This document shows positions 1,021-38,785 of a stretch of DNA of 38,785 nt, piece after piece. Positions within the stretch are counted from its first letter, which is position 1, and each line of letters opens with the position of its first letter. The stretch is from a virus: positions 1 to 38,785 of IMG/VR virus record IMGVR_UViG_3300045988_184596; one strand, written 5' to 3'. The notes below the pieces were generated by a model that was not told the DNA's origin, did no database searches, and worked only from the letters and a program-made list of their open reading frames with translations. The position numbers and the translations under genes were made by a program.

Positions 1021-1224
1021 CTATTCGCTATACATAAATGCGAAACTATCACTAATCTTTTCTTTTCTTTCAATGTAACCAATCAAGAAATCCCATTGTC
1101 TGCAAGATATTACATCATCCTTGTAATATCTGTTTACGATACCTTTCAATTCTTCTTCACTGATTACATCCATCTTTTCATTTACTTCTTTACATACTTT
1201 TTGCAATTGCTTTAAATTTGTCAT
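1021..1224 (-). CDS. hypothetical protein
   Basis: 67-aa ORF with AGGAGGAAACAGAA then ATG. Confidence 0.5.
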   Translation of the reverse strand: MTNLKQLQKVCKEVNEKMDVISEEELKGIVNRYYKDDVISCRQWDFLIGYIERKEKISDSFAFMYSE

Positions 1225-1247
1225 TTCTGTTTCCTCCTATATATGTA

Positions 1248-1337
1248 TTACTTAATAAGCCAAACAACTAACAATGCAATTCCTAATACAATTACAATTA
1301 CATCTAGAATCGTTTTTACTTTCTGCAATCTTTCCAT
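1248..1337 (-). CDS. 29-aa single-TM hydrophobic peptide
   Basis: My translation: MERLQKVKTILDVIVIVLGIALLVVWLIK. AAAGGAGGAACAAGAA precedes the ATG at 1335-1337. Confidence 0.45.
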   Translation of the reverse strand: MERLQKVKTILDVIVIVLGIALLVVWLIK

Positions 1338-1385
1338 TTCTTGTTCCTCCTTTTATGTGGTACAATGAAGTAAAGAGTTAGGGAA

Positions 1386-1508
1386 TCAGTTCCCCAAGCT
1401 CTTTATAATTGTTATTGCGAATGCGAGAATTTCAATAACATTTTTAGCAATCTCTAAGTAGATATTCACGGTTTCTGCTTTGCGATTGCTTTTTTTCTTT
1501 GTTTTCAT
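1386..1508 (-). CDS. 40-aa basic N-terminus / hydrophobic C-terminus peptide
   Basis: My translation: MKTKKKSNRKAETVNIYLEIAKNVIEILAFAITIIKSLGN. AGGAGGTTAAAT precedes the ATG at 1506-1508. Lies downstream of promoter copy B. Confidence 0.45.
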   Translation of the reverse strand: MKTKKKSNRKAETVNIYLEIAKNVIEILAFAITIIKSLGN

Positions 1509-1547
1509 ATTTAACCTCCTAAAACAAATATCCTTGTCTTTCTGACC

Positions 1548-1586
1548 ACATATATAGTATAACATACACGTATATACATGTAAAGA
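1548..1586 (-). promoter_or_regulatory. sigma-A type promoter, copy B of the 39-bp repeat
   Basis: Same TTTACA-17-TATACT architecture as 773-811. Confidence 0.6.
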
Positions 1587-1674
1587 ACTTTTTTAGGAAA
1601 AATAAAAAAAGCCCTGTATAAACAGAACTCCCTTAAATTAATATCAAAATGAATATTAACCTCAAAGCCATATA

Positions 1675-1692
1675 AATTATAGCACATAAAAG
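1675..1692 (-). promoter_or_regulatory. extended -10 element (TGTGCTATAAT), copy 1 of an 18-bp direct repeat
   Basis: AATTATAGCACATAAAAG is identical to 2544-2561. Minus strand reads CTTTTATGTGCTATAATT. Confidence 0.45.
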
Positions 1693-1695
1693 CAA

Positions 1696-1719
1696 AGACC
1701 GTACAGAATTATACGGTCT
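1696..1719 (-). terminator. terminator downstream of the endolysin
   Basis: Minus strand AGACCGTA-TAATTCTG-TACGGTCT followed by TTGCTTTTAT. Confidence 0.6.
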
Positions 1720-1756
1720 AATATACGAAAAATAAGTTGAAGGTTTTATATGTAAT

Positions 1757-2518
1757 TTATGCTACTTCAATTAATGGACCACAATTTACCCAAATTCCAC
1801 CGATTTTCGCAAGGTTCTTTTGTGCGTTGACTTCATCAACACGAATTCTTGTAACGTAGACAACGGCATTTGTGGTATGCAATACGTTATCATTATATCC
1901 ATCAGAGTAGCGAACTTTGTCAACCATACGAATTGGAAACCAACCACCTAATTGTGCAAGGTATGCGCATAAATCGCCATTGATTTGTTTCAATCCTTGA
2001 TTGCCAATCTTCATTTGAACTGATGTTACGTAGCTTCCTGCGTGCAAGATTTGGTCAATTGCTTCTACAGGTTGTGGAATGCTTGGTTTAACTGCTCCTG
2101 TGTTTGCGAAACATTTAGGTCTAAACGCAGTATCAAATGTTGCATAATAAGGCAATTTAATTAAATTGAATGCTCCACCTTTTCCACCTTGATTTTGACC
2201 CAAGAACCATCCTTGCTTTCCGTCAATATCAGAATCAAAGATTGCGATATGTGAGTATGGAGTCCATCCTGCTACTTCTTTAAATACCGCAATGTCTCCC
2301 GGTTGCATAATTGAGACTTCATTACAGTAATTCAAGATACCATTTGTTTTTCGATTGTTCCAAATGTCTTTTACAAATTTGCTTGTTGTACAATGGATAG
2401 CCTTATATCCTAAATCAATCATGTACTTTGTGAATCCGTCCCAACACTGCGCACCATAATATCCGTCAATGTCGAATGCTTTGCCTAATACGGCTTCTTT
2501 AAAACTTTGATAATTTAT
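1757..2518 (-). CDS. CHAP-domain endolysin with C-terminal wall-binding region; proposed ATA start at 2516-2518
   Basis: The frame is open upstream of the ORF-track ATG (2420-2422). It encodes INYQSFKEAVLGKAFDIDGYYGAQCWDGFTKY, carrying the CHAP catalytic Cys. His motif is in YSHIAIFD. AAAGGAGGA lies 10 nt before the ATA. Confidence 0.85.
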   Translation of the reverse strand: MNYQSFKEAVLGKAFDIDGYYGAQCWDGFTKYMIDLGYKAIHCTTSKFVKDIWNNRKTNGILNYCNEVSIMQPGDIAVFKEVAGWTPYSHIAIFDSDIDGKQGWFLGQNQGGKGGAFNLIKLPYYATFDTAFRPKCFANTGAVKPSIPQPVEAIDQILHAGSYVTSVQMKIGNQGLKQINGDLCAYLAQLGGWFPIRMVDKVRYSDGYNDNVLHTTNAVVYVTRIRVDEVNAQKNLAKIGGIWVNCGPLIEVA

Positions 2519-2543
2519 TAAAAAAAATCCTCCTTTATGTACT

Positions 2544-2561
2544 AATTATAGCACATAAAAG
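2544..2561 (-). promoter_or_regulatory. extended -10 promoter for the endolysin, copy 2 of the 18-bp repeat
   Basis: Minus strand TGTGCTATAAT about 25 nt upstream of the endolysin SD. Confidence 0.5.
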
Positions 2562-2571
2562 AGGTTTTTTA

Positions 2572-3009
2572 TCACTGATATACAGAGAACATTTCTCTTA
2601 ATTTATCTCTTACCATTTCTCTTTCTTCTTGAAAGTCGCTAGACGTTTTCATTTCTTCTAAGATTCCATACATAGCGCTCAAAAAAGCTTCTAACTCACG
2701 AATAGATGTTCGTTTATCAATTTCATTGTTATCTTTTCGATATTCTTTTTTTGCTTCTATGTATTTTCTAAAATGGCTATTCATCAATGCAATATTATCA
2801 TCAATTTCTGTCCCTTCAATATCCGTATCATTTGTTTTCAATGCGTTTATAGCAGTTCTTCCATCACTCATAGCCAATATTGTATCAATGTCTTTGATGT
2901 TGTCTAAGGCTTGGCTCATGACTTTAAAATCTAAATCATTGTATCCTCTTTCTAGTCCTCTCATTGCTTCCGTTAAGAGGTCTAGATTCCTTTTTCTAAC
3001 CTCTTGCAT
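2572..3009 (-). CDS. hypothetical all-helical acidic protein (cargo)
   Basis: 145-aa ORF. ATG preceded by TAGGTG. Confidence 0.6.
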   Translation of the reverse strand: MQEVRKRNLDLLTEAMRGLERGYNDLDFKVMSQALDNIKDIDTILAMSDGRTAINALKTNDTDIEGTEIDDNIALMNSHFRKYIEAKKEYRKDNNEIDKRTSIRELEAFLSAMYGILEEMKTSSDFQEEREMVRDKLREMFSVYQ

Positions 3010-3016
3010 GATACAC

Positions 3017-3436
3017 CTACGCTAATTTCTTAATGATGATATTTGCATTCTGAACAGATAAATCTAAGCCACTGTTATTTCCTAATGTAATTGTGTAAGA
3101 AGCTCCACAAGGTACTTGAATCAATGTAGCCCCACTTACATTTCCGTATGCACTTGCAGTAGCTACATTATATAAAGATTGTGTTCCGCCTACAATTTCT
3201 CCATTCTGTTCTAACTCTAAAGAAGCGACTCCTACTGTTGCACTTGTGATGTCTGCCGTATATTCTACTTCATAAATTCCTTGTTTTGTTAATGTAAATA
3301 GTCCACTACCTACATCATGAGCAAGCCAACCTTTACATGCACATTGGCAGGATTTAGTTCTTACTCTGTCCGTTGGAAATAATACATTTTGTCCGTTTGC
3401 TACTGTCTGTACTGCCGTTGCTATACTATTAATCAT
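3017..3436 (-). CDS. BclA C-terminal-domain-like (TNF/C1q-type jelly-roll) protein
   Basis: GLFTLTKQGIYEVEYTADITSATVG..LELEQNGEIVGG...NANIIIKKLA parallels, from my recollection, the BclA CTD (..ETGFYKITV..IQVNGVPV..SASIIIEKVA). No collagen repeats. AGGAGGAAAAGAAAA precedes the ATG. Confidence 0.5.
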   Translation of the reverse strand: MINSIATAVQTVANGQNVLFPTDRVRTKSCQCACKGWLAHDVGSGLFTLTKQGIYEVEYTADITSATVGVASLELEQNGEIVGGTQSLYNVATASAYGNVSGATLIQVPCGASYTITLGNNSGLDLSVQNANIIIKKLA

Positions 3437-3462
3437 TTTTCTTTTCCTCCTATAAAATAAAT

Positions 3463-3482
3463 GGGTAGCCTTTCGACTACCC
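3463..3482 (-). terminator. intra-cargo terminator
   Basis: Minus strand GGGTAG-TCGAAAGG-CTACCC followed by ATTTATTTTAT. Confidence 0.5.
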
Positions 3483-3517
3483 TATAATCCAAAGGCTATT
3501 GCCTAATCTCTTTCGAG

Positions 3518-4129
3518 CTAGATTTGGTTACATCCACAACCTGTCATATTATACGCATAATAAGGTGAGCAAGTAAGATATGCAGGTTTTGGCGTTGGTT
3601 GCAATGTGTTAATGATATTAGCAGATTGTGCCTGTTGACTTAATTGGAAGTTTGCAGTCAATAAATCTCGGTCTCTGTCTGCTAATTTATCACGCAACTC
3701 TTGCATTGTGTTAGCATTAATCAATGCTCTTGTTGCTTCGCCTTCTGAGTGAATCGCAGTGGTAATATCACACGTATTCTTGAAGCTCTGTGTATTTACA
3801 CCATCAATCGCTCTTTGAGTCGCACAACAACATTCTTGGTTCTGTTGACCTAGATTCTGCAAACCTAATTGTGTCGTGTATCGGCTTTCTAAAATGTCTC
3901 TTGAATTTTGGAAACCTTGGCTAGATACATTCTGATTTGTGTTGAATAAATCACGCTTAATAAATTCTTGATTCATTAATTCATCATTCTGCAAGTTGCC
4001 ATTGTTACCCCAATTTCCACCAAAAAGTAAGAATAAAAGGATAATCCAAATCCAATATCCTCCACCAAATTCATTGTTGTTTCTGTCTGCTAAATCGTAC
4101 ATTGGTTGAATACCATTCATGCTTTCCAT
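3518..4129 (-). CDS. single-pass membrane protein with Q/N-rich ectodomain and Cys clusters (CCC, CGC)
   Basis: 203 aa. TM segment GGGYWIWIILLFLLFGG. Motifs QECCCATQ and TGCGCNQI. AAAGGAGGAAATATAA precedes the ATG. Confidence 0.6.
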   Translation of the reverse strand: MESMNGIQPMYDLADRNNNEFGGGYWIWIILLFLLFGGNWGNNGNLQNDELMNQEFIKRDLFNTNQNVSSQGFQNSRDILESRYTTQLGLQNLGQQNQECCCATQRAIDGVNTQSFKNTCDITTAIHSEGEATRALINANTMQELRDKLADRDRDLLTANFQLSQQAQSANIINTLQPTPKPAYLTCSPYYAYNMTGCGCNQI

Positions 4130-4153
4130 TTATATTTCCTCCTTTCAACGCAA

Positions 4154-4363
4154 TTAGCGTTTTAGCCCATATTGACTAGCCACATTTTCAAACTGTTGCT
4201 TCTGTTGTGGCGTTAAATTCCCCATCATATTACTTAGCAATACTTGGGGATTCTGCCCACTCTGCATTAATTGTTGTAATTGATTAAATGCTTGTGGGTT
4301 TCTTTGTTGCAACATACCCATCAACATTTGTTGAGGGTTCATCATATTCATTAAAGGATTCAC
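4154..4363 (-). CDS. small Q/M/N-rich protein
   Basis: 69 aa. AAAGGAGC, 7 nt, then GTG start overlapping the upstream stop (GTGA). Confidence 0.55.
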   Translation of the reverse strand: MNPLMNMMNPQQMLMGMLQQRNPQAFNQLQQLMQSGQNPQVLLSNMMGNLTPQQKQQFENVASQYGLKR

Positions 4364-4785
4364 GCTTTAAGCTCCTTTCTAGGCGTTTCTTTCTCTGCCT
4401 TTGTATTTATATTACTTCCGTTTGTTAGACCTAATATCATAGCTTCTAGCTTGTCTAAGCGTTGTTCTATGTTGTCTTTCTTTGGCTCTGTTTCTTCTTG
4501 GAATCTGTATTTTTTGAAACTGCCGTCTAAAGACTTCATATAGAATACTGAATCATTTCTATCTAGCATAATACTAGGCAAACTATTCACCATCATATTC
4601 CTTGCTTCTTGTTCATTATTGACCCACTTACCATTAAAATCATTTAATCCCACGTTAGGCGTGATTTGGTTGTTAATATTAATAGGCGGAATATTTGCTA
4701 ACTGTTGAATGTTTTGTAACTGTGATTCAATCATTTGCTTTTGATTCATTAAATTGTTAATTCTGTCATTAATTGGATTATACAT
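4360..4785 (-). CDS. hypothetical protein with coiled-coil N-terminus (cargo)
   Basis: AAGAGGTGAGCGAA then ATG at 4783-4785. GTG at 4792-4794 is an alternative start. Confidence 0.55.
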   Translation of the reverse strand: MYNPINDRINNLMNQKQMIESQLQNIQQLANIPPININNQITPNVGLNDFNGKWVNNEQEARNMMVNSLPSIMLDRNDSVFYMKSLDGSFKKYRFQEETEPKKDNIEQRLDKLEAMILGLTNGSNINTKAEKETPRKELKA

Positions 4786-4809
4786 TTCGCTCACCTCTTT
4801 ACACTCCTA

Positions 4810-4815
4810 ATTATA
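4810..4815 (-). promoter_or_regulatory. candidate -10 (TATAAT) for the cargo operon
   Basis: Perfect TATAAT on the minus strand between terminator 4864-4889 and the cargo SD. No convincing -35. Confidence 0.3.
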
Positions 4816-4863
4816 TTCATAGGCAGTCTCAGTTTGTTTTCACATTAATATCAGATAAATGTC

Positions 4864-4889
4864 AAAAAAAAGAGGCTTTTCAACCTCTT
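4864..4889 (-). terminator. strong terminator ending the late operon
   Basis: Minus strand AAGAGG-TTGAAAAG-CCTCTT followed by eight T. Overlaps the stop of 4888..5154. Confidence 0.7.
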
Positions 4890-5154
4890 AATTCTTATCT
4901 AGATACATTTCTTTTTCACTGCTTTTTCTTGGTGGTAGGACTGCGCTATACTTCTCTACTTCATCATACTTGTTCTTTATTCTTTTGATGATTCTATTCA
5001 CACTAGAAACACTCATATTCAATCTATCGGCTTGTTCTCTGACTGTCCATCCGTATATTCTAGTTCTTAAAATCATTTCTTCATCTTTAGTTAATAAAGC
5101 TAGATTAATAAATTCTTCAAGAATAATCTTATTCCAGGGTACTTGATTCGTCAT
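4888..5154 (-). CDS. sigma-70 region-4-like / LuxR-type HTH small regulator
   Basis: 88 aa. LLTKDEEMILRTRIYGWTVREQADRLNMSVSSVNRIIKRIKNK fits the region 4 HTH pattern. Confidence 0.5.
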   Translation of the reverse strand: MTNQVPWNKIILEEFINLALLTKDEEMILRTRIYGWTVREQADRLNMSVSSVNRIIKRIKNKYDEVEKYSAVLPPRKSSEKEMYLDKN

Positions 5155-5635
5155 TTTCTTGTTCTTCGTTAACGAGTTTATCTGCTACTTCTAATCCTTT
5201 AGTTAATGCTTTTGGTACATTGTAACCACATTGTAATAAATTCTCCATAACGCTACGAGATTCATTAATACATAGCGAAGCTAACACAAACCAACCTAGC
5301 AATGTAGATACATGGAAATCAATTCCTAGAATTTCTCCTACTTCTACTAGAAACGCACTGAATGTGAACGCAACCACAATCATAATCCAATAGCCTAACT
5401 TTTTTAAAACACCTGTCCAACCTTTGTTGCTATTGATTTTATGAGCGATAGCCGATTTCATGCATCCTGTAATATAATCCACTACATTCATAAATAAGAA
5501 GAATGCGAATAAATACCAATGTTCACCTAATACGTATGTTAATACGGCTACGGCAACACCACACATTGCATTAATCTTATCTAGAAAAAACATACTTCTT
5601 GCTATTTGTTTAAATCCTCCATTTTTCTTTTCTAT
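5129..5635 (-). CDS. holin (TcdE / Holin_4_1-like family); proposed ATA start at 5633-5635
   Basis: Several TM segments. KGWTGVLKKLGYW and CINESRSVMENL motifs. TAAGGAG overlaps the ORF-track GTG; an in-frame ATA lies 8 nt after AAGGAG. Confidence 0.75.
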   Translation of the reverse strand: MEKKNGGFKQIARSMFFLDKINAMCGVAVAVLTYVLGEHWYLFAFFLFMNVVDYITGCMKSAIAHKINSNKGWTGVLKKLGYWIMIVVAFTFSAFLVEVGEILGIDFHVSTLLGWFVLASLCINESRSVMENLLQCGYNVPKALTKGLEVADKLVNEEQENDESSTLE

Positions 5636-5647
5636 TAAATTCACTCC

Positions 5648-6661
5648 TTACATGATTTTTAAATTATCAACCTCTAATTCTAAGGTTCTATATCCACTTT
5701 TAATGACTTCAAATATATTTCTAATTCTCGCAGTCATTACTAGTCCAATATCTGCTACTATAACATCAACTTTATCACCTAAATCAAAATCAACCTTGTA
5801 TTCGTATGAATCAGTATTCAATCCAAAATTCACATTTTCTTGAATTTGACAATCCGCTAGTTTTTCAATTCCTTTCTGAATAAGCACCTTTTTATATTCA
5901 TCAAGTGTCACATCATCCATCATACGCTCAGAACGTGCGTCTACGAATAACTTTTTGATTCTTTCATTCTTATCTATTCTAGCGTCATATTCAACGTATA
6001 TACGCTCTTCTGACTGTCCTTCGCCACAAATGATTGCATAGTTCTTGTATTTACTTGAGTCAATCATTACATCCGGTTCTTCAATGTTTCCAAACTCTGT
6101 AGAGAATGTAACAAAGTTGTTTCCATCTACATTGTTCTGAGTTAAATCACGCCCTCGATACAACACGAATGTGAACGTACTTGATACATAGTCATATTCT
6201 ATACGGAAAGACAATTCTAACGGATAGAGTAACTCATATAACTTCTTATCTAGGTTCTCTCCTGTTTCTTGAAAGTCTACTCTATCTGTGATGGATTCAT
6301 CATATCTATATCCCATTTTCCATGAGCAATACTTGTCTAATAGCTTTTTGACCACATCAACAATTTTTCCGCTACTTGAGAATGTAGGATAAATACAATC
6401 ATCTGCTAGAATCTTTTCAAAGAAAGAACCTTTTAATAGCATTTGTTTCGTGTTGTTTGAAACGGAATAATGCGGTATTTCTACAATTCCTAACTCTTTA
6501 TCCTCAGTTGAATAAATATATTTGATATTGCTCGAATACTGCCCTATATCAATATAAATCTCGAAATCTCCTGTTTCATAATATCGCCGATTCCACTGCA
6601 CATTATAAGGTGCTAGATGTGTAACGATATTGAAATCTTTATCTAATCCAAAATAAGACAT
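5648..6661 (-). CDS. tail-tip/baseplate protein (Sipho_Gp37 / Tal N-terminal-like)
   Basis: Position directly after Dit. N-terminus ...YNVQWNRRYYETGDFEIYI... is typical of this family. Only 337 aa, with no C-terminal extension. Confidence 0.6.
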   Translation of the reverse strand: MSYFGLDKDFNIVTHLAPYNVQWNRRYYETGDFEIYIDIGQYSSNIKYIYSTEDKELGIVEIPHYSVSNNTKQMLLKGSFFEKILADDCIYPTFSSSGKIVDVVKKLLDKYCSWKMGYRYDESITDRVDFQETGENLDKKLYELLYPLELSFRIEYDYVSSTFTFVLYRGRDLTQNNVDGNNFVTFSTEFGNIEEPDVMIDSSKYKNYAIICGEGQSEERIYVEYDARIDKNERIKKLFVDARSERMMDDVTLDEYKKVLIQKGIEKLADCQIQENVNFGLNTDSYEYKVDFDLGDKVDVIVADIGLVMTARIRNIFEVIKSGYRTLELEVDNLKIM

Positions 6662-6662
6662 A

Positions 6663-7532
6663 CTATAAACCTAAATACCTTTCATTGTAGTAAACCGTAC
6701 AAGCTAGGTTCGTATCTCCATTGTCTGCCGTATATCCTATGATATTCTCACCCAACTGAATCGTCATATCATTGAATGATGATGTTCTATCAACTTTTCC
6801 GATACAATTCACACCATTCTTTTTGATTGATATAGGCTCAGAAACTAAATCAATTTCTAACACATCACCATTGTGTAGCGTATCTAATACACGAATATAT
6901 TTATCTTTGTTGAATAGTTTCGGATTTGTAACATCTCCAAACGCTTCAATAACGGCTCTGCAATATGTTTCTGTGTCGCCTTGATTATCAATATAGATTT
7001 CTCTAGCGAATGTAAATGTTCCAAAGTTTACGCCTGTTTCCGGTATTTCAAAATTGAACGCTAAACCTTCACCAATTTCTGCGATATTCCTTGCGAAATC
7101 ATCAAATGAAAGCAATAAAGGTTGTGTGCATAGAATTGTAAAGTTAAGCTCTAAATCTTTGTAGATGTTAACTGTAGGCAAGCTATACGCATATAAACGA
7201 CCTCTACAATATTTCTTTTCTCTCATGTACTCAACTATCACATCAAATATATGAGAATATTGGAAGAAGCGCCGTAGCTTCTCCCTTTCTTCTCTTTTTT
7301 CTTCTAGTGAACCTTTAAAGGTAGATTTCACGCTTCTTTCTTTCGTTGGAATACGTGAACCGATTAATCTAGCACCATTTCCGAATGCATTGTCTTGGGT
7401 AGTATACGAAGGTGCTACATAATCAAATCCATCTAATCCGTCACTAGATGGTATTCTCCATCTTTTGTTGTCGATTTCAAATTCTTTGCCATCATCCCTA
7501 CGGACAATAACTCTTACTTTATTGATATCTAT
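6663..7532 (-). CDS. distal tail protein (Dit); proposed ATA start at 7530-7532
   Basis: Frame open for 67 codons upstream of the ORF-track GTG with no ATG/GTG/TTG. GGAGGTG, 7 nt, then ATA overlapping the tape-measure stop (ATAG). Confidence 0.75.
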   Translation of the reverse strand: MDINKVRVIVRRDDGKEFEIDNKRWRIPSSDGLDGFDYVAPSYTTQDNAFGNGARLIGSRIPTKERSVKSTFKGSLEEKREEREKLRRFFQYSHIFDVIVEYMREKKYCRGRLYAYSLPTVNIYKDLELNFTILCTQPLLLSFDDFARNIAEIGEGLAFNFEIPETGVNFGTFTFAREIYIDNQGDTETYCRAVIEAFGDVTNPKLFNKDKYIRVLDTLHNGDVLEIDLVSEPISIKKNGVNCIGKVDRTSSFNDMTIQLGENIIGYTADNGDTNLACTVYYNERYLGL

Positions 7533-10108
7533 TGAACTACACCTCCATATCCATATCTTGCTTGCATTCGTAACATTCTAGCGATTTCATCCGGACTTTG
7601 CGCTTTATTGTAGAAGTTGATAGTTTGTCCATTGTTATTTGTCGTTACGCTTGGCATGATTTGAGCCATATCTTTAGCTACGGCACGAATCCACGCTTTA
7701 TTTTTTTCTAAAGGTACGACTGCTTCTGCCCCATTACCTTCTAATAAACCGATTTGACCACGCTTCAATACACCACCACGTTCTAATCTTGGAATCCTTC
7801 CAATGTGCACTCCGGGAATCTTATTGATGATACCGATTGCGCCGTTAATGCCACCGATAACTCCATTTACCATTCCTTTTACACTTCCAACTAATGAACT
7901 AACTGCTCCTTCAATTCCGCCAAATACACCACCTACAAATCCTTTTAAACCGCTCCATGCATTTTGTATGCCTTGTAGGACATTTGAAATTTTATTCCCT
8001 ACATTATCCATTACGCCTTGAACTTTAGACCAAATGCCATTAAATACATCAGAAACAGTACTCTTAACATTATTGAAATATTTATTGATATTATCAATAA
8101 CACCTTGAACCTTGTCTCTTACCTTGTTCATGGAATCTTGAATCTTACTCCAAATATTGTTTATGATGTCCGAAACCGTCTTAAATAAATTGCTTACGAA
8201 TCCAATAATAGCAGTAACTACTTCGCTAACTTTGCTCCAAATATTCTGAGCAACCGTTAATATTACAGACCAAATATTCGCTACAATTGTAGCTACAATT
8301 TGAACAATAGGCATGATAAAGCCTAGTATTGTTGCAATTGCAGTTCCGACATACGTCACAACCGTATTTATGAATGAAATGATTCCACTTACCACACTTC
8401 CCACAATTTGAAGGATAGATGTTATTACAGGAATCATGCCGATAACTGTTTGAATAATCTTCTTAATAATTGCTAGAATTGGTGGTCCTACTACGCTAAG
8501 AACCTTTTGAGCTTGGTTTACTACATTTTGAATTGCACTGCCTATCTTGCTTAAAATTTCTTTTGCAATAGGTTCAAGTGCAACTTTCATTTCATCAATC
8601 GCTTTTCTGACCTCATCAAAAGCAGGAGCTAACACCTCTGAAACTTGACTTGTCAATTCTGTAATTCCACTTGTATCAATCTTGCTTAATACATTTGAAA
8701 TTACATCACCAACTTTAGCAAATCCTTGTTGAATACCTTGTATAGCTACTGTAATTAATCCGATGATACCTGCAAGAATAGGGGTAATAAGTTCGCCTAT
8801 TGGAGTAAATGAATCAAGAAATGCACGTCCTAAGCCACTTAAAGCATTCTTTAAGCCACCATTTGCAATTTCTTTAACTTTATCCATTGCACCTTCTACA
8901 TCTTTATATTTATTCCCTACTGTCGTTAAGGACTGAATGAATCCGGCGTTGAAATCTTCTCCCATTGTACCGAAAGCCGTTGCCGATTTATTCAACTTTT
9001 CTTGTTCATTTGTAGTCTTTGAAATATCTTCTACAATCGCATTTACAACATCTTTTTGAGTTGCTCTTCCTTCTTGCCAAGCCTTAAAAACATCTTGCGT
9101 CTTGGTATCAAAACTATCCAACGCTCCTTCAATAGTTCCATCAACTAATCTTGTTGTAACTTCGTTAATTGCGTCGTTCACTTTGTCAAGGTTATAAGCT
9201 CCACCGTCTAAACCATTCTGCATTAATTGGAAATATTCATCTGCCGAATATCCTGCTTGTGCGAATTTACCGGAGTATTCTGAAATGTTGTCGCCTAACT
9301 CATCCGACTTATTCAAACCATTCTGAGCACCTGTAGCCATAAGGTCAAACGCTTCTTTAGAAGTGATTCCGAACTGCTTCATTAATTGTTGAGCACCTCT
9401 AAGAGTTTCATTCTCATCCATATCGAATGTGTCTCTTAAAGTTAATAAATCCTCGGTCACGTTCTTTAGGTCAACATCACTTATGCCTTGCATTTGTTGC
9501 TTGACTCTGCCCATCATATCGGCAACATCTGAAACATCTTCACCGAAATTATTTGACCAAACATCACGAGCAATGTTTTTAAATTTGCTCATTTCATTGC
9601 TTGAAGCACCTGTTTGAGCTTGAAATTTAGCCATAGCGTCATCTAATTCAGTAGCTTGATTTACACCTGTCTTAATTGCTAATGCCATTCCACCGATAGC
9701 TCCTGCTACGGCAGTAACACCAACAACACCTCCTACGCCTAATCCTGTTAGGGTTTCAGTGATTGCAGTAGCTTCCGGACTAATATTCTGAATCTTTCCT
9801 AATAGTCCATCAAATCCACCTTGAATTGATTCTAAGGCACTGTTTCCTACTTGTTTAAATACATCAAATTTAGAACCTGTTTCTTGCGTTTCTGTTTGTG
9901 TATTCTTTTGCTCTTCGTTTAAATCTTTAAGTTTATCTTTAATCTTTGGTGGTGCTTTTGAACCATCAGAACCTAGCTTGTCGATTGCTTTTGAAGTTTC
10001 TTTGATAGCATTTGTAGCTCCACTTGTGACTTCATGAACGGATTTCAGTCCATTCTCTAGACCACTTGTATCAATCTTTGTATCAAACTTTAATGTTCCG
10101 TCTGATAT
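7529..10108 (-). CDS. tail tape measure protein; proposed ATA start at 10106-10108
   Basis: Long helical/hydrophobic protein with NIWSK repeats. Frame open for 140 codons upstream of the ORF-track ATG, beginning ISDGTLKFDTKIDTSGLENG. AAAAGGAGGTG lies upstream. Confidence 0.85.
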   Translation of the reverse strand: MSDGTLKFDTKIDTSGLENGLKSVHEVTSGATNAIKETSKAIDKLGSDGSKAPPKIKDKLKDLNEEQKNTQTETQETGSKFDVFKQVGNSALESIQGGFDGLLGKIQNISPEATAITETLTGLGVGGVVGVTAVAGAIGGMALAIKTGVNQATELDDAMAKFQAQTGASSNEMSKFKNIARDVWSNNFGEDVSDVADMMGRVKQQMQGISDVDLKNVTEDLLTLRDTFDMDENETLRGAQQLMKQFGITSKEAFDLMATGAQNGLNKSDELGDNISEYSGKFAQAGYSADEYFQLMQNGLDGGAYNLDKVNDAINEVTTRLVDGTIEGALDSFDTKTQDVFKAWQEGRATQKDVVNAIVEDISKTTNEQEKLNKSATAFGTMGEDFNAGFIQSLTTVGNKYKDVEGAMDKVKEIANGGLKNALSGLGRAFLDSFTPIGELITPILAGIIGLITVAIQGIQQGFAKVGDVISNVLSKIDTSGITELTSQVSEVLAPAFDEVRKAIDEMKVALEPIAKEILSKIGSAIQNVVNQAQKVLSVVGPPILAIIKKIIQTVIGMIPVITSILQIVGSVVSGIISFINTVVTYVGTAIATILGFIMPIVQIVATIVANIWSVILTVAQNIWSKVSEVVTAIIGFVSNLFKTVSDIINNIWSKIQDSMNKVRDKVQGVIDNINKYFNNVKSTVSDVFNGIWSKVQGVMDNVGNKISNVLQGIQNAWSGLKGFVGGVFGGIEGAVSSLVGSVKGMVNGVIGGINGAIGIINKIPGVHIGRIPRLERGGVLKRGQIGLLEGNGAEAVVPLEKNKAWIRAVAKDMAQIMPSVTTNNNGQTINFYNKAQSPDEIARMLRMQARYGYGGVVQ

Positions 10109-22901: not shown

Positions 22902-23051
22902 TTAATACCCCCTATAACAATCATATTGATTCAATTGCTTTTTAAGCCTTTGTAATCTTTTTCTTAAGTCTCTTTTTCTATATTCTGATGTAGTGTTTTC
23001 TAATTCTTCTTCAACGCTTTTCATTTGGCGTAAATGTTCTTCTCTAGACAT
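22902..23051 (-). CDS. 49-aa coiled-coil protein
   Basis: My translation: MSREEHLRQMKSVEEELENTTSEYRKRDLRKRLQRLKKQLNQYDCYRGY. The ATG overlaps the end of the radical SAM gene. Confidence 0.4.
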   Translation of the reverse strand: MSREEHLRQMKSVEEELENTTSEYRKRDLRKRLQRLKKQLNQYDCYRGY

Positions 23052-24351
23052 GTCTTGCTTCTTCTGTTTCAAGTTCTGTAATCTCCTCTGTTCTTTTTAA
23101 GAATGTTACTGAATTATCATATTCGTAAATGATGTCATTATTTTCATCAAATCCTACAGGCTTTAGAACCTTTTCAAAAATCTTATAAGGTGATTGTCCT
23201 GCTTTTGGTGAATTCCATAAATAATGCAGATAATCTTTCATTGTCATTCCTGCATATTTCGCCCTAGCTTCTGATGTATTTGTATTGAAACCAACCGCTT
23301 TGTTACGCTCAAAGTCTAAGAAGTACATATCCTTTTCAATATCTTTCCAATGTACTCTTCCATGTTTCTTTGCAATTTGTAAAGCTCCACTAAAGTTTCC
23401 TCTTGAGTAATCCCAATTCTTATTTAATGCACAACAACAACAATTATTTGAGCATTCTTTAAAGTGTGCGTCTGATACATAGAATCGCATACCTAATTCA
23501 TCACATAGCTCTTTCATCTTTTGAATGTATTTAGCCTTTACTTTTCTGTTAAGTCTTAAATATCCACTTCCATTTGAATGTTTTCTATAGAAATCTACAA
23601 TATCAAACCCTGCACATTCACTAATCACATCATAATGCTCCTTAGCTTGTTTAATAGAGCGCATTTCTAAGCAAAAGAACTCTGTAGTAACCGCAGTAGC
23701 TCCTGCCTTTTTGGCTTCTCTAATTAAATCTAGATAGGTTTTATCTGATACTCCTACAATAAACGGACGCAATCTTAAAGTTGCACCACCTTTTGATAGT
23801 TCAGTATATTTTTTCATTGCTTCAAGTCTTTTTCTTGGACTTGGAACACCTACTTCGATTTTTCTCGCGTCCTCTTCATCTAGTGTGATGATACTAAACT
23901 TAACATTCCAATTGTCTGCACCTTTGAATAATTCTTGATATTTAGGGTCGTTAAATACCCATGCCGATTTCGTACTAAAACAGATAGGATAGTTAATAGA
24001 TTTCAAATATTTTAGCATTTCATAGGTTTTACCATATTTCTTTTCATATCCGTCGAATTGGTCTGATAAACCACCATATTGAATAGGACGTCTGTCTTTA
24101 ATGTATTTATAGAATTGCGATTTTGTATCTTCTCCACTGAAAATCTTTTTGCATTTCTCAACATTGATACATTTCACATCTTTATTAAGATATGCTTCTT
24201 TACTTGCACCAATACCTCTTTGATATTGGCTAAAACAATAAACACATCCAAATGAACAGTTGGAATATGTATCAAATGTTACCGGTAATGAGCAATCCGC
24301 AATTTCTCCTGTCCATCTTGGTGATTGATATGTCTCACTGATTTTATTCAC
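23044..24351 (-). CDS. radical SAM protein (SplB / COG1533 DNA-photolyase-like fold) with a C-terminal Cys cluster
   Basis: CSFGCVYC = CxxxCxxC near the N-terminus. Later CSNNCCCC. GGAGGA, 6 nt, then GTG. Confidence 0.7.
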   Translation of the reverse strand: MNKISETYQSPRWTGEIADCSLPVTFDTYSNCSFGCVYCFSQYQRGIGASKEAYLNKDVKCINVEKCKKIFSGEDTKSQFYKYIKDRRPIQYGGLSDQFDGYEKKYGKTYEMLKYLKSINYPICFSTKSAWVFNDPKYQELFKGADNWNVKFSIITLDEEDARKIEVGVPSPRKRLEAMKKYTELSKGGATLRLRPFIVGVSDKTYLDLIREAKKAGATAVTTEFFCLEMRSIKQAKEHYDVISECAGFDIVDFYRKHSNGSGYLRLNRKVKAKYIQKMKELCDELGMRFYVSDAHFKECSNNCCCCALNKNWDYSRGNFSGALQIAKKHGRVHWKDIEKDMYFLDFERNKAVGFNTNTSEARAKYAGMTMKDYLHYLWNSPKAGQSPYKIFEKVLKPVGFDENNDIIYEYDNSVTFLKRTEEITELETEEARHV

Positions 24352-24352
24352 C

Positions 24353-25120
24353 TTATATCCTCCATTTTCTTTTAATAATTAAGTTATTTCCTCTAATTGT
24401 TACCATGTCATCATATTTTCTTTTCAATAAATTTAGATATTGCTTTTGTAGGTTTGTAGTTTTATATATTTCATAATATCCACCTTTTTCTTTTCCCATT
24501 CTTGCTTTATTTGCAATAATGGTGTTATTGCGTGCTATAATTTGTCCTTGCCTTATTAATCTAAGACATAACTCATAATCATCTAAGATTTTCATTTTTT
24601 CATCATATGCAATCTTGTTATTTTTTATAATGAAATTAAATCCGCCTTGTAAAAGCGTGTTATATGAATATTGTTCACCTGTCCTATTTAGCTTTGAAAT
24701 GTTCATTTTATTATCGGTTGATATTACACCGGCATAATTGATTCCGTTTTTTTGCATAAAATCAAATATCTTTTTAACTTCACGCTCAAAGTTATTTGTC
24801 AAATTTATTAAACGCCCACATTTAGTTTCTGAACATTCATGCCATTTTTGAAAGCTCCTTATATCATCATCTAACAATAGTATTTTTGAACCATCTTCAA
24901 ATTGATTTAGGCATGTATTCCTATTGAATGATACATACATACCTTCTCTTAAAATGATTCTCGCTCGGCTTCCTAAATTCTGCCTGTAAGCTTTATAATC
25001 ATTTGAATCATTTAAACATACAACGATTCTTTCATCTTCAATCCCACATTCTTTTAGTGCGTGATATGTTTTACATTTTGGTCTATGGTAACTAGCTATT
25101 GCATAATAGATGTTATTCAT
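24353..25120 (-). CDS. GT-A-like (DXD) nucleotide-sugar transferase-like protein
   Basis: N-terminal YAIASYHRP resembles the GT2 IPxYNR motif. ILLLDDDI is a DXD motif. Confidence 0.4.
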   Translation of the reverse strand: MNNIYYAIASYHRPKCKTYHALKECGIEDERIVVCLNDSNDYKAYRQNLGSRARIILREGMYVSFNRNTCLNQFEDGSKILLLDDDIRSFQKWHECSETKCGRLINLTNNFEREVKKIFDFMQKNGINYAGVISTDNKMNISKLNRTGEQYSYNTLLQGGFNFIIKNNKIAYDEKMKILDDYELCLRLIRQGQIIARNNTIIANKARMGKEKGGYYEIYKTTNLQKQYLNLLKRKYDDMVTIRGNNLIIKRKWRI

Positions 25121-25694
25121 GCATTAATTCCTTGATGTCGTAGCACACTTTTAATTCAGTTACCTGCAAGAGTTTCTCTAAGAATAGTTGCTCTTCCTCT
25201 GTTTCATATGTAATGATTACACGTTGCTTTTTTAACATATCTTCAGAATGCTCACTAAACATATCCATAAGCTCGTTATCATATCCTTCTGCTTCCATAT
25301 CCTCAGTTAATGCACTAATCTCAAAATCGCCGAATCCGAAATCTCTCATATCGATTCCGTCAATCTCTTCAAGCTCTTCCATTTCTGTTTTTAATGCGTC
25401 TAAATCCCACGAAGCTTTTTCTGCCGTTTTATTATCTGCAATTCTAAATGCTTTTACTTGCTCATCTGTTAAATCATCTGCAACCACACAAGGAACAGTT
25501 TCTAAGCCTAATTCTTGACTAGCTTTATATCGTGTATGACCTGCAACAATAACTCCATCTTTATCAATAACAATAGGAACTTTGAAACCGAATTCCTCAA
25601 TAGAATTTTTAACAAATTTCACCGCTCCATCATTGATTCTAGGGTTATTCTCATAAGGTTTTAGCTCATTTAATCTTTTTTCAACAATATTCAT
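25113..25694 (-). CDS. ParB N-terminal-domain (ParB/Srx fold) protein lacking the usual methyltransferase fusion
   Basis: AAGGAGGAGAAT then ATG at 25692-25694. LKPYENNPR...IVAGHTRYKASQELGLETVPCVV..FRIADNK. Confidence 0.7.
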   Translation of the reverse strand: MNIVEKRLNELKPYENNPRINDGAVKFVKNSIEEFGFKVPIVIDKDGVIVAGHTRYKASQELGLETVPCVVADDLTDEQVKAFRIADNKTAEKASWDLDALKTEMEELEEIDGIDMRDFGFGDFEISALTEDMEAEGYDNELMDMFSEHSEDMLKKQRVIITYETEEEQLFLEKLLQVTELKVCYDIKELMHE

Positions 25695-37687: not shown

Positions 37688-38785
37688 CTAAAATTTGTCT
37701 TTCTCCATAAATTGTACAATACCTTTATCGGCTTGAGGTAGCCAATGAGCGTATACTGAAAGCACTGTATCGAGGTTATCTCCTAATCGTTTTGCAATGT
37801 CATACACTGAGAAATTCACTGTTCCATTTGTAACCATATTGTTAATCATGTAAGAAGCGCAGGAGTGTCTTAAATCGTGTATTCTGATAATAGGTATTTG
37901 CTCATTTCGTGGTAGCTTGATATTTGTTTTCTTAATAGTCTCATTCAGTTCTCTTCTAACCGAACTACGATAAAAAGGTACTGTCATACCAAATATATAA
38001 TCATTATCGTTTGCGTTCATGTTCTCTTTAAAAGCTTTATATTCATCAGATAGAAATTGTGGCATTGTAATTAATCTATAACTGTTATTTGTTTTAGGTG
38101 TTGTAGCTTTTCTTAGCATGTCTGCCCATGTTTTCTGTATGTTGATGGTATTATTAGTTAAATCAACATCTTTCCATTGTAAAGCTAATGTTTCACCTAT
38201 TCTCATTCCCATATAAAATTGATTCATAAATAATAAATGATATACAGGCTTATTTTCGTTCGCTATAAACTTGTTGAATTGCTCAACTGTCCAATACATC
38301 ATGTCTTTCTTCTTTTCGTTTGGGTCTTTCTTTAAATCAATATTATCGCACGGACTCACTTGAATATATCCTTGCCTTACTGCGTAATTCAATACTGCTC
38401 TAAATTTCGTATAATAGTTAAGTACTGAATTGAATGACATTGATTGCATTAATTTATTAATGAACTTTTCTATATTGTTTGATGTAAGCTTTTTAACCTC
38501 GCATTCACCTAGTTCATCTTCCCAATATTTTAGAATCGCTCTCTGCGTTAAGTATGAGCTTTCTTTAATTCTCTTTTCCGAGTATACTTGATATTGATAA
38601 GATAGTTCTTTAAATGTGATGGTTGCGTTTGGCTCTTTTAAATTCTCTTTAAATAGGATTTCGGCTTTTATAGCGTCCTTCTTTTTTTCAAAACCACGCT
38701 TCTTATATTGTTTGGTTTTTCCATTCAATTTATATGAACCGTAATACATCCATTTACCTGTTGCTTCATCTTTTTTAACTGCCAT
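37688..38785 (-). CDS. int: tyrosine recombinase / phage integrase
   Basis: RIHDLRHSCASY and VLSVYAHW catalytic motifs. N-terminal arm-binding-type domain (KWMYYGSYKLNGKTKQYKKRGF). ATG at the window edge. Confidence 0.9.
   Translation of the reverse strand: MAVKKDEATGKWMYYGSYKLNGKTKQYKKRGFEKKKDAIKAEILFKENLKEPNATITFKELSYQYQVYSEKRIKESSYLTQRAILKYWEDELGECEVKKLTSNNIEKFINKLMQSMSFNSVLNYYTKFRAVLNYAVRQGYIQVSPCDNIDLKKDPNEKKKDMMYWTVEQFNKFIANENKPVYHLLFMNQFYMGMRIGETLALQWKDVDLTNNTINIQKTWADMLRKATTPKTNNSYRLITMPQFLSDEYKAFKENMNANDNDYIFGMTVPFYRSSVRRELNETIKKTNIKLPRNEQIPIIRIHDLRHSCASYMINNMVTNGTVNFSVYDIAKRLGDNLDTVLSVYAHWLPQADKGIVQFMEKDKF

Follow-up and report, generated by a model that had tools for sequence, protein, structure and literature searches.

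A probable ATA start codon in a phage endolysin gene and a candidate initiator-derived tRNA with a matching anticodon

AUA and AUU are described as attenuating start codons of single regulatory genes, such as infC (AUU/AUA) and, in Staphylococcus aureus, ccpN and citZ (AUA), which use the host initiator tRNA and are expressed at low levels (PMC13009471). In the laboratory, initiator tRNAs with an altered anticodon, such as the amber tRNA(CUA) and tRNA(AAC), make the matching non-AUG codons into starts (bioRxiv 10.1101/2021.05.25.445580). Stop-codon-recoded phages likewise encode, on the same genome, a tRNA that changes the reading of a codon, and mostly their late genes are affected. Such engineered non-AUG initiators were found in the literature searched, which yielded neither a natural non-AUG initiator tRNA nor ATA starts in phages. 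The present study concerns the endolysin gene of the IMG/VR virus record IMGVR_UViG_3300045988_184596, the whole 38,785-nt stretch of which is referred to as the window, and a tRNA gene with a UAU anticodon in the same DNA.

The phage shares with the attenuated S. aureus genes a Firmicute context and AUA placed behind a strong, extended Shine-Dalgarno (SD) sequence. However, the genes concerned in the phage are structural and lysis genes needed in bulk, and a matching tRNA is present. The engineered initiators are laboratory constructs, whereas the phage tRNA is natural, has been retained in lineages that diverged from one another and is linked to about 20% of the phage genes. In recoded phages it is termination that is altered, while here it would be initiation; the 49 curated genes of the window are free of in-frame stops under table 11, and the analogy is functional only. 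Overall, the comparisons given below make it likely that the endolysin is one of about ten ATA-started genes of this phage, and that their AUA starts are decoded by an initiator-derived tRNA of the phage itself.

The endolysin gene and its start codon

All features of the window described here lie on the minus strand. The open stretch of the endolysin frame extends from 2545 to 1757, between an in-frame upstream stop (TAA, 2548-2546) and its own terminal TAA (1759-1757). It contains no ATG, GTG or TTG before the ATG at 2422-2420, which is preceded by 41 codons of open stretch. The coding sequence proposed here on the basis of the open reading frame, PHROG matches and homology comprises 253 codons (2518-1757) and begins with ATA at 2518-2516. 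Upstream of this ATA lie, in order, the SD sequence AAAGGAGGA (2536-2528), a run of eight T (2527-2520) and an A at 2519, which is position -1; the A/T spacer between SD and ATA is thus 9-10 nt long, and the SD is kept in relatives. The 32 codons from ATA up to the codon preceding ATG 2422 translate to INYQSFKEAVLGKAFDIDGYYGAQCWDGFTKY. The only other in-frame codon in this interval that is start-like under table 11 is an ATT at 2470, which has no SD. An earlier sequence-only reading of this DNA had located the upstream stop, the SD, the ATA and the first ATG correctly, and had also placed the nucleophilic cysteine of the enzyme upstream of the first canonical start; that cysteine codon is indeed the TGT at 2446-2444, eight codons ahead of ATG 2422-2420.

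The protein has a CHAP domain at its N-terminus, joined to an uncharacterised C-terminal domain, and is probably a CHAP peptidoglycan hydrolase. With the ATA counted as residue 1, the predicted nucleophile Cys25 sits in the motif GAQCWD and its catalytic partner His90 (CAT, 2251-2249) in YSHIAIF. Both residues are invariant in an alignment with the B30 lysin and metagenomic homologues. When the lysin is compared as a single sequence, they fall on the equivalent Cys and His in two solved CHAP structures, those of lysin L2 and LytN, His90 matching the His of YGHTAI. A profile of the family matches solved CHAP domains with E values of 3e-6 to 1e-4, and in LysK (4CSH) and 4OLK the Cys and His again align with this pair; PF05257 is precomputed on close homologues of the lysin. 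The sequence-only reading had taken QCWD for the CHAP nucleophile motif, and these alignments agree with that placement; the Pfam CHAP (PF05257) score of the single sequence, at 24.9 bits, falls just short of the 26-bit cut-off. PHROG endolysin families match the protein from residue 2 on.

The closest described enzymes are the Streptococcus phage lysins of the B30/PlyGBS type. A tblastn search gave 57% identity to their CHAP domains over residues 3-147, counted from the ATA. The B30 coding sequence starts three codons before the aligned block, which puts its Met1 one residue ahead of the ATA position, and the Cys-His pair occupies the same positions (C26 and H91 in B30 numbering). These two residues of B30 were reportedly mutagenized by Pritchard and colleagues in 2004. 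B30 differs in starting with ATG and in carrying lysozyme and SH3b domains behind the CHAP domain; the window lysin has another, unannotated C-terminal domain, which it shares with lysins of Erysipelotrichaceae phages.

The position of the start is best seen in closer homologues. In the following, L numbers denote DNA loci of relatives and P numbers clusters of homologous proteins. A protein database search returned 726 lysin homologues, many of which, at 65-84% identity, are 252-257 residues long and begin with the pattern M-N/T-Y-E/Q-x-F. In alignment, Met1 of P0003, P0005 and P0008-P0012 coincides exactly with the Ile encoded by the ATA of the window (P0003 reads MNYEQFK.. and P0012 MTYQEFY.. 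from this point). Identity between the lysin and homologues with Met1 at this very codon is 71-84%. In the closest relatives (81-96% identity), Met is absent at this position. Five independently assembled loci, L001-L005, have the same SD, T-run, A and ATA as the window, while the ATG-type relatives L217, L218 and L219 have an ordinary arrangement of AGAAAGGAG, spacer and ATG. The T-run comprises eight T in the window, L001 and L003, seven in L002 and nine in P0006 (back-read). Since its length varies, the frame upstream of the ATA is unconserved and cannot be coding. The claim of the sequence-only reading that ATA is a genuine start is upheld by these alignments, and translation of the functional lysin very probably begins at ATA 2518. 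A megablast search of the lysin region against 50,697 GenBank phages gave no match.

Three simpler explanations of the lysin frame were considered. Translation could start at ATG 2422, the first canonical start, and yield an inactive protein without the cysteine, or the gene could be a decaying pseudogene; public gene calls of some relatives are truncated (P0013, P0027). However, residues 1-32 are conserved through to the Streptococcus phage lysins, including the invariant Cys. The ATG itself has no SD and encodes a residue (Met33) in place of which homologues have L, C or Q. Many independent assemblies, moreover, preserve the frame over its full length. This explanation is therefore very improbable, and a product begun at Met33 would, as had been claimed before, be catalytically dead. 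Secondly, ATA and ATG differ by a single base, and a sequencing or assembly error might be suspected. The same ATA recurs in assemblies made from different samples by different pipelines (ENA, Logan, IMG/VR), as do the ATA starts of nine other genes, which leaves this explanation with a negligible probability. Thirdly, the T8 run directly before the ATA could suggest that the N-terminus comes from an upstream start by slippage or other recoding. Between the stop of the upstream gene (2572) and the ATA there is only a four-codon ATG open reading frame, located inside a promoter-like box, and T7, T8 and T9 runs shift the upstream frame without harm while homologues start at the exact residue; slippage is thus scarcely credible. 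Conservation across assemblies and the variable T-run are what set aside error, pseudogene and slippage.

Public annotation of this gene family is affected in both directions. Gene callers have extended lysin relatives through the SD by way of upstream TTG, GTG or ATG codons (P0001, MVQKGGFLIDYQ; P0002, MAYKGGFFLINYQ; P0004 and P0006, MYNWHIKEDFFLINYQ), and database N-termini in which the SD is translated read ..KGGFFLINYQ. P0013 and P0027 have been cut to an internal Met71 and hence lack the catalytic Cys, so that 'dead' lysins of 183 residues stand in public databases. Two further candidates for ATA starts, P0053 and P0035, were ruled out; scaffold Ns and a contig end interrupt them, and P0053 has an ATG. 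In this phage group, about 20% of the genes are cut short or falsely lengthened by standard gene callers. For expression of the lysin, the gene would have to be cloned from ATA 2518 with the ATA replaced by ATG, as cloning from the first ATG would give an inactive enzyme.

ATA starts across the phage genome

A stop-to-stop frame scan identified ten genes of the window, the endolysin included, in which ATA is the only plausible start and lies 5-10 nt past a strong SD. Most of the others belong to the structural region, beginning with the portal protein (467 aa; ATA at 21221-21219), whose ATA start is kept in a distant lineage represented by L179. It is followed by a head protein (269 aa; 19821-19819), recognized from the frame scan, relatives and PHROG-type function calls, and by a structural-region protein of 202 aa (18378-18376). 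The major head protein (289 aa) starts at 14108-14106. A minor head or connector protein (120 aa; 12354-12352), a tail-region protein (168 aa, phrog_3099; 11576-11574) and the distal tail protein Dit (289 aa; 7532-7530) were each identified from the frame scan and relatives. In the tape measure protein (859 aa; 10108-10106), the first canonical start is 140 codons downstream of the ATA. The RusA-like resolvase (125 aa; 32356-32354) has the only ATA start that lies upstream of the tRNA gene. Counted over the 49 curated window genes, ATA starts are found in 9 of 27 late genes vs 1 of 22 early genes (p=0.014).

Each of these starts is kept as ATA in up to 18 related IMG/VR loci. Three swaps of ATG for ATA occur at the exact codon, one in the major head gene of L001 and two in the 202-aa structural-region gene, of L012 and L023. 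A switch between Ile and Met codons that is limited to the first codon is as predicted for a start codon. In a search for orphan starts, in which an SD is followed by ATA, tRNA-bearing loci gave 14 per 100 kb vs about 1 per 100 kb in loci without the tRNA that the same search had recovered, the latter figure resembling the rates for ATT, ATC and AAT. Only these three codons are fair controls in the enrichment scan; GAA, AAA, TTA and ACA were rejected, because as neighbours of ATA at true starts their counts are inflated. L215 and L216, phages with ATG-type lysins, contained no orphan SD+ATA starts.

A second lineage, consisting of L179 and L105, combines the same features at a greater distance. 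Its portal, major head and connector proteins are 54-62% identical to those of the window, and these three orthologues as well as the gene adjoining the tRNA start with ATA, all with A at -1. Its tRNA is diverged, with C1xA72 and a normal T arm, and has an identical anticodon loop, CUUAUUA. Within the window, A stands at -1 in 10 of 10 ATA starts vs 20 of 37 ATG starts (Fisher p=0.006, or p=0.001 with L179 added), figures to be read with the small number of sites in mind.

The ATA codon could also be reassigned throughout, for example to Met as in mitochondria, in which case a change of the code rather than a start-codon device would be involved, and a dedicated UAU tRNA would fit such a change. 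However, about 100 internal ATA codons are present in the phage, at the rate of host genes: ATA accounts for 15% of Ile codons in the phage vs 18% in five host-flank genes, the host sample being small. The 1:72 mismatch of the tRNA described below also speaks against its use in elongation. Reassignment is accordingly very unlikely. Further, as ATA usage does not exceed that of the host, a need for elongator supply offers no rationale for the tRNA.

The phage tRNA and the proposed decoding of AUA starts

The sequence-only reading had mentioned a phage tRNA, and one is present at 25895-25820. The Rfam tRNA covariance model matches 25895-25823 with 48.8 bits, and the encoded CCA runs on to 25820. 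The anticodon loop is CUUAUUA, giving anticodon UAU and U at position 37, where a purine is usual; the acceptor end has A1xA72 and A73. ARAGORN calls no tRNA in the window, which is explained by the T-stem bulge and the T loop UGCAAAU of this copy, and the covariance model was needed to find it. Variants with stronger anticodon stems are called by ARAGORN, as tRNA-Ile(tat). The D loop of the window's tRNA, AGUAGUA, is without the usual GG, position 55 is G and the bulge in the T stem is of one base; the L179-type tRNA has a normal GG and UUCGAUU.

Its relationship to initiator tRNAs was examined by sequence comparison. BLAST against 5,426 E. coli genomes matched only tRNA-Met genes, at about four places per genome. 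One such place was inspected and is a three-gene tRNA-Met cluster between mltA and amiC. The number and map position fit the four E. coli initiator genes (metZWV and metY), which we take these places to be. Among GenBank phages, every annotated match to the tRNA is a tRNA-Met. Over its full length the tRNA is 78% identical to E. coli tRNAfMet. It shares with it the 1x72 mismatch, G2:C71, C3:G70 and A73, the initiator D arm with A11:U24, the variable loop AGGUC, G30:C40, the T-loop CAAAU and the GCAACCA end. The A11:U24 pair is a mark of initiator tRNAs. It differs from the E. coli tRNA in having UAU instead of CAU, U37 instead of A37, a T-stem bulge, one or at most two G:C pairs where the E. 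coli tRNA has three in a row, and A1xA72 instead of C1xA72, the last of which is retained in the L179 lineage.

The tRNA was found in seven sequence variants at 35 viral and 28 metagenomic places. All seven are compatible with the cloverleaf, six pairs of which show compensatory changes across them. Positions 1 and 72 are unpaired in all seven (A1xA72 in six, C1xA72 in the L179 type), while G2:C71, C3:G70, A73, G30:C40 and the D stem GAGC/GCUC with A11:U24 are invariant. The initiator anticodon CAU is absent, every copy having UAU. A mismatch at 1:72, along with pairs 2:71 and 3:70, is a determinant for the formylase, and G30:C40 is the essential member of the three G:C pairs, of which au/GC/gu variants occur naturally in mycoplasmas (PMC5389676). 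Elongator tRNA-Ile(UAU), known from Mycoplasma mobile and from tilS-bypass mutants of B. subtilis (PMC3919564), also reads AUA with UAU. However, it has a paired 1:72 and a purine at 37, and both the Watson-Crick 1:72 pair and purine 37 are absent in all variants of the phage tRNA. These features identify the phage tRNA, as far as its sequence can tell, as initiator-derived and not an ordinary tRNA-Ile. A search for the initiator-like UAU/U37 pattern among 185,579 species-representative genomes gave no match.

The proposed pathway is as follows. The 253-residue CHAP endolysin would be translated from ATA 2518-2516 with the help of this tRNA, which would descend from a bacterial initiator and retain, at its acceptor end, the features by which an initiator is formylated and kept out of elongation. 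Charged with Ile or Met and formylated, it would be used in the ribosomal P site, where UAU would pair perfectly with AUA. High-throughput work in E. coli has demonstrated that position 37 of tRNAfMet pairs with mRNA position -1, where A is preferred by an initiator with the A37U change (PMC10018350). By analogy, U37 could pair with the A found before each ATA start, as a fourth base pair, and the combination is suggestive of a four-base start signal, AAUA:UAUU. The ATA genes would then be translated efficiently only with the phage tRNA present. In its fullest form, a natural orthogonal initiation system in which the target of an initiator tRNA has shifted from AUG to AUA, with U37 co-adapted to an obligatory A(-1) and about a fifth of the genome dependent on it, the proposal appears somewhat better than even.

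The principal alternative is that the ATA starts are read inefficiently by the host fMet-tRNA with the help of a strong SD, the phage tRNA being unrelated (a spare tRNA-Ile, a decoy or a relic). Firmicute ribosomes are known to do this, as in S. aureus the host initiator reads AUA behind an extended SD at about 10-30% of the efficiency of AUG (PMC13009471), and the labelling of variant tRNAs as tRNA-Ile(tat) by ARAGORN would agree with a spare isoleucine tRNA. On the other hand, large amounts of the major head, portal and tape measure proteins are required, for which attenuation would be an odd choice. The 1x72 mismatch, A11:U24 and U37 are unfit for an elongator, and ATA usage in the phage does not exceed that of the host. 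Moreover, two diverged lineages have both the tRNA and the ATA starts, whereas other phages have neither. We regard host-initiator decoding as rather unlikely, though not negligible.

Several points weigh against decoding by the phage tRNA or make it less simple. The use of AUA by the host initiator in S. aureus implies that the ATA starts would not be silent without the phage tRNA. The run of three consecutive G:C pairs is incomplete, 29:41 being A:U or G:C and 31:39 U.G or C:G, and the window's tRNA has the T-stem bulge and the T loop UGCAAAU noted above. The preference for A at -1 rests on 10 sites (14 with L179) in an A-rich context, and the lysin SD is buried in a hairpin of -25 kcal/mol.

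If the proposal is true, phages would have a new means of setting their late translation apart from that of the host, namely an initiator tRNA encoded by the virus and directed at a non-AUG codon. Efficient synthesis of virion and lysis proteins would have to await expression of the phage tRNA, as a start-codon counterpart of stop-codon recoding. It would also bear on the co-evolution of start codons and initiator tRNAs, including the proposed pairing of position 37 with mRNA position -1, and would put at hand, for Firmicutes, an orthogonal initiation pair that evolution has already tested.

Other initiator-shaped UAU tRNAs occur in metagenome loci, with A37 in L201, L194/L209, L175/L213, L182 and L173/L211, and with C37 in L176/L180. 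The full stem of three G:C pairs is kept in L201, L194/L209, L186 and L203, and most of the A37/C37 tRNAs have C1xA72 or A1xA72. No SD+ATA starts were found in the short flanks of the A37/C37 loci. In L209 (ERZ779669 NODE_22, a contig of 95.8 kb), long open reading frames at about 1200-9600 are preceded or interrupted by in-frame TAG, which suggests a TAG-recoded phage. Beside the initiator-like tRNA(UAU) of this locus, ARAGORN also reports a tRNA whose anticodon has four bases ('tgaa').

Host, neighbouring genes and elements around the lysin

The gene content of the window is that of a temperate phage or prophage, with a tyrosine integrase at its far end (37688-38749). The flank of the prophage L002 shows 86-87% identity to a Holdemanella ABC-F gene, and L002 adjoins host CsoR/CopA genes. 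As the UAU/U37 pattern is unmatched in species-representative genomes, the host can be placed only from this flank, and we infer a temperate siphovirus whose host is a gut bacterium of the Erysipelotrichaceae resembling Holdemanella. The tRNA is followed, at 23044-25694 directly downstream, by genes for a ParB_N protein, a TET-associated glycosyltransferase (TAGT) and a protein with a weak radical-SAM match, which may form a DNA-modification module.

A terminator scan and folding detected a 16-bp terminator-like hairpin at 2564-2529, followed by U8 (2527-2520), the 3' arm of which is the lysin SD. Its minimum free energy is -25.4 kcal/mol (z = -6.1), and it is kept in L001-L003, with changes from G.U to G-C in the stem as judged by eye. 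The 5' arm and loop contain an extended -10 promoter-like box, TGCTATAAT (2553-2545), which may act as a promoter. A transcript from about 7 nt past this box would begin near 2538 and leave the SD free, while read-through transcripts from upstream would terminate or hide the lysin SD. Transcription of the lysin would thus depend on read-through of the hairpin or on initiation at the box inside it.

The box belongs to an 18-mer, CTTTTATGTGCTATAATT, of which a second exact copy lies at 1692-1675, directly after a terminator-like hairpin downstream of the lysin stop (1719-1696, from the terminator scan). About 40 nt beyond this copy is another terminator-like hairpin (1634-1605), and this may be a small RNA unit of about 60 nt. 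A 53-nt direct repeat, with 89% identity between its copies, is located at 773-825 and 1548-1600. On the minus strand it reads TTTACA-17-TATACT with an upstream TG, a promoter-like arrangement placed before small open reading frames downstream of the lysin.

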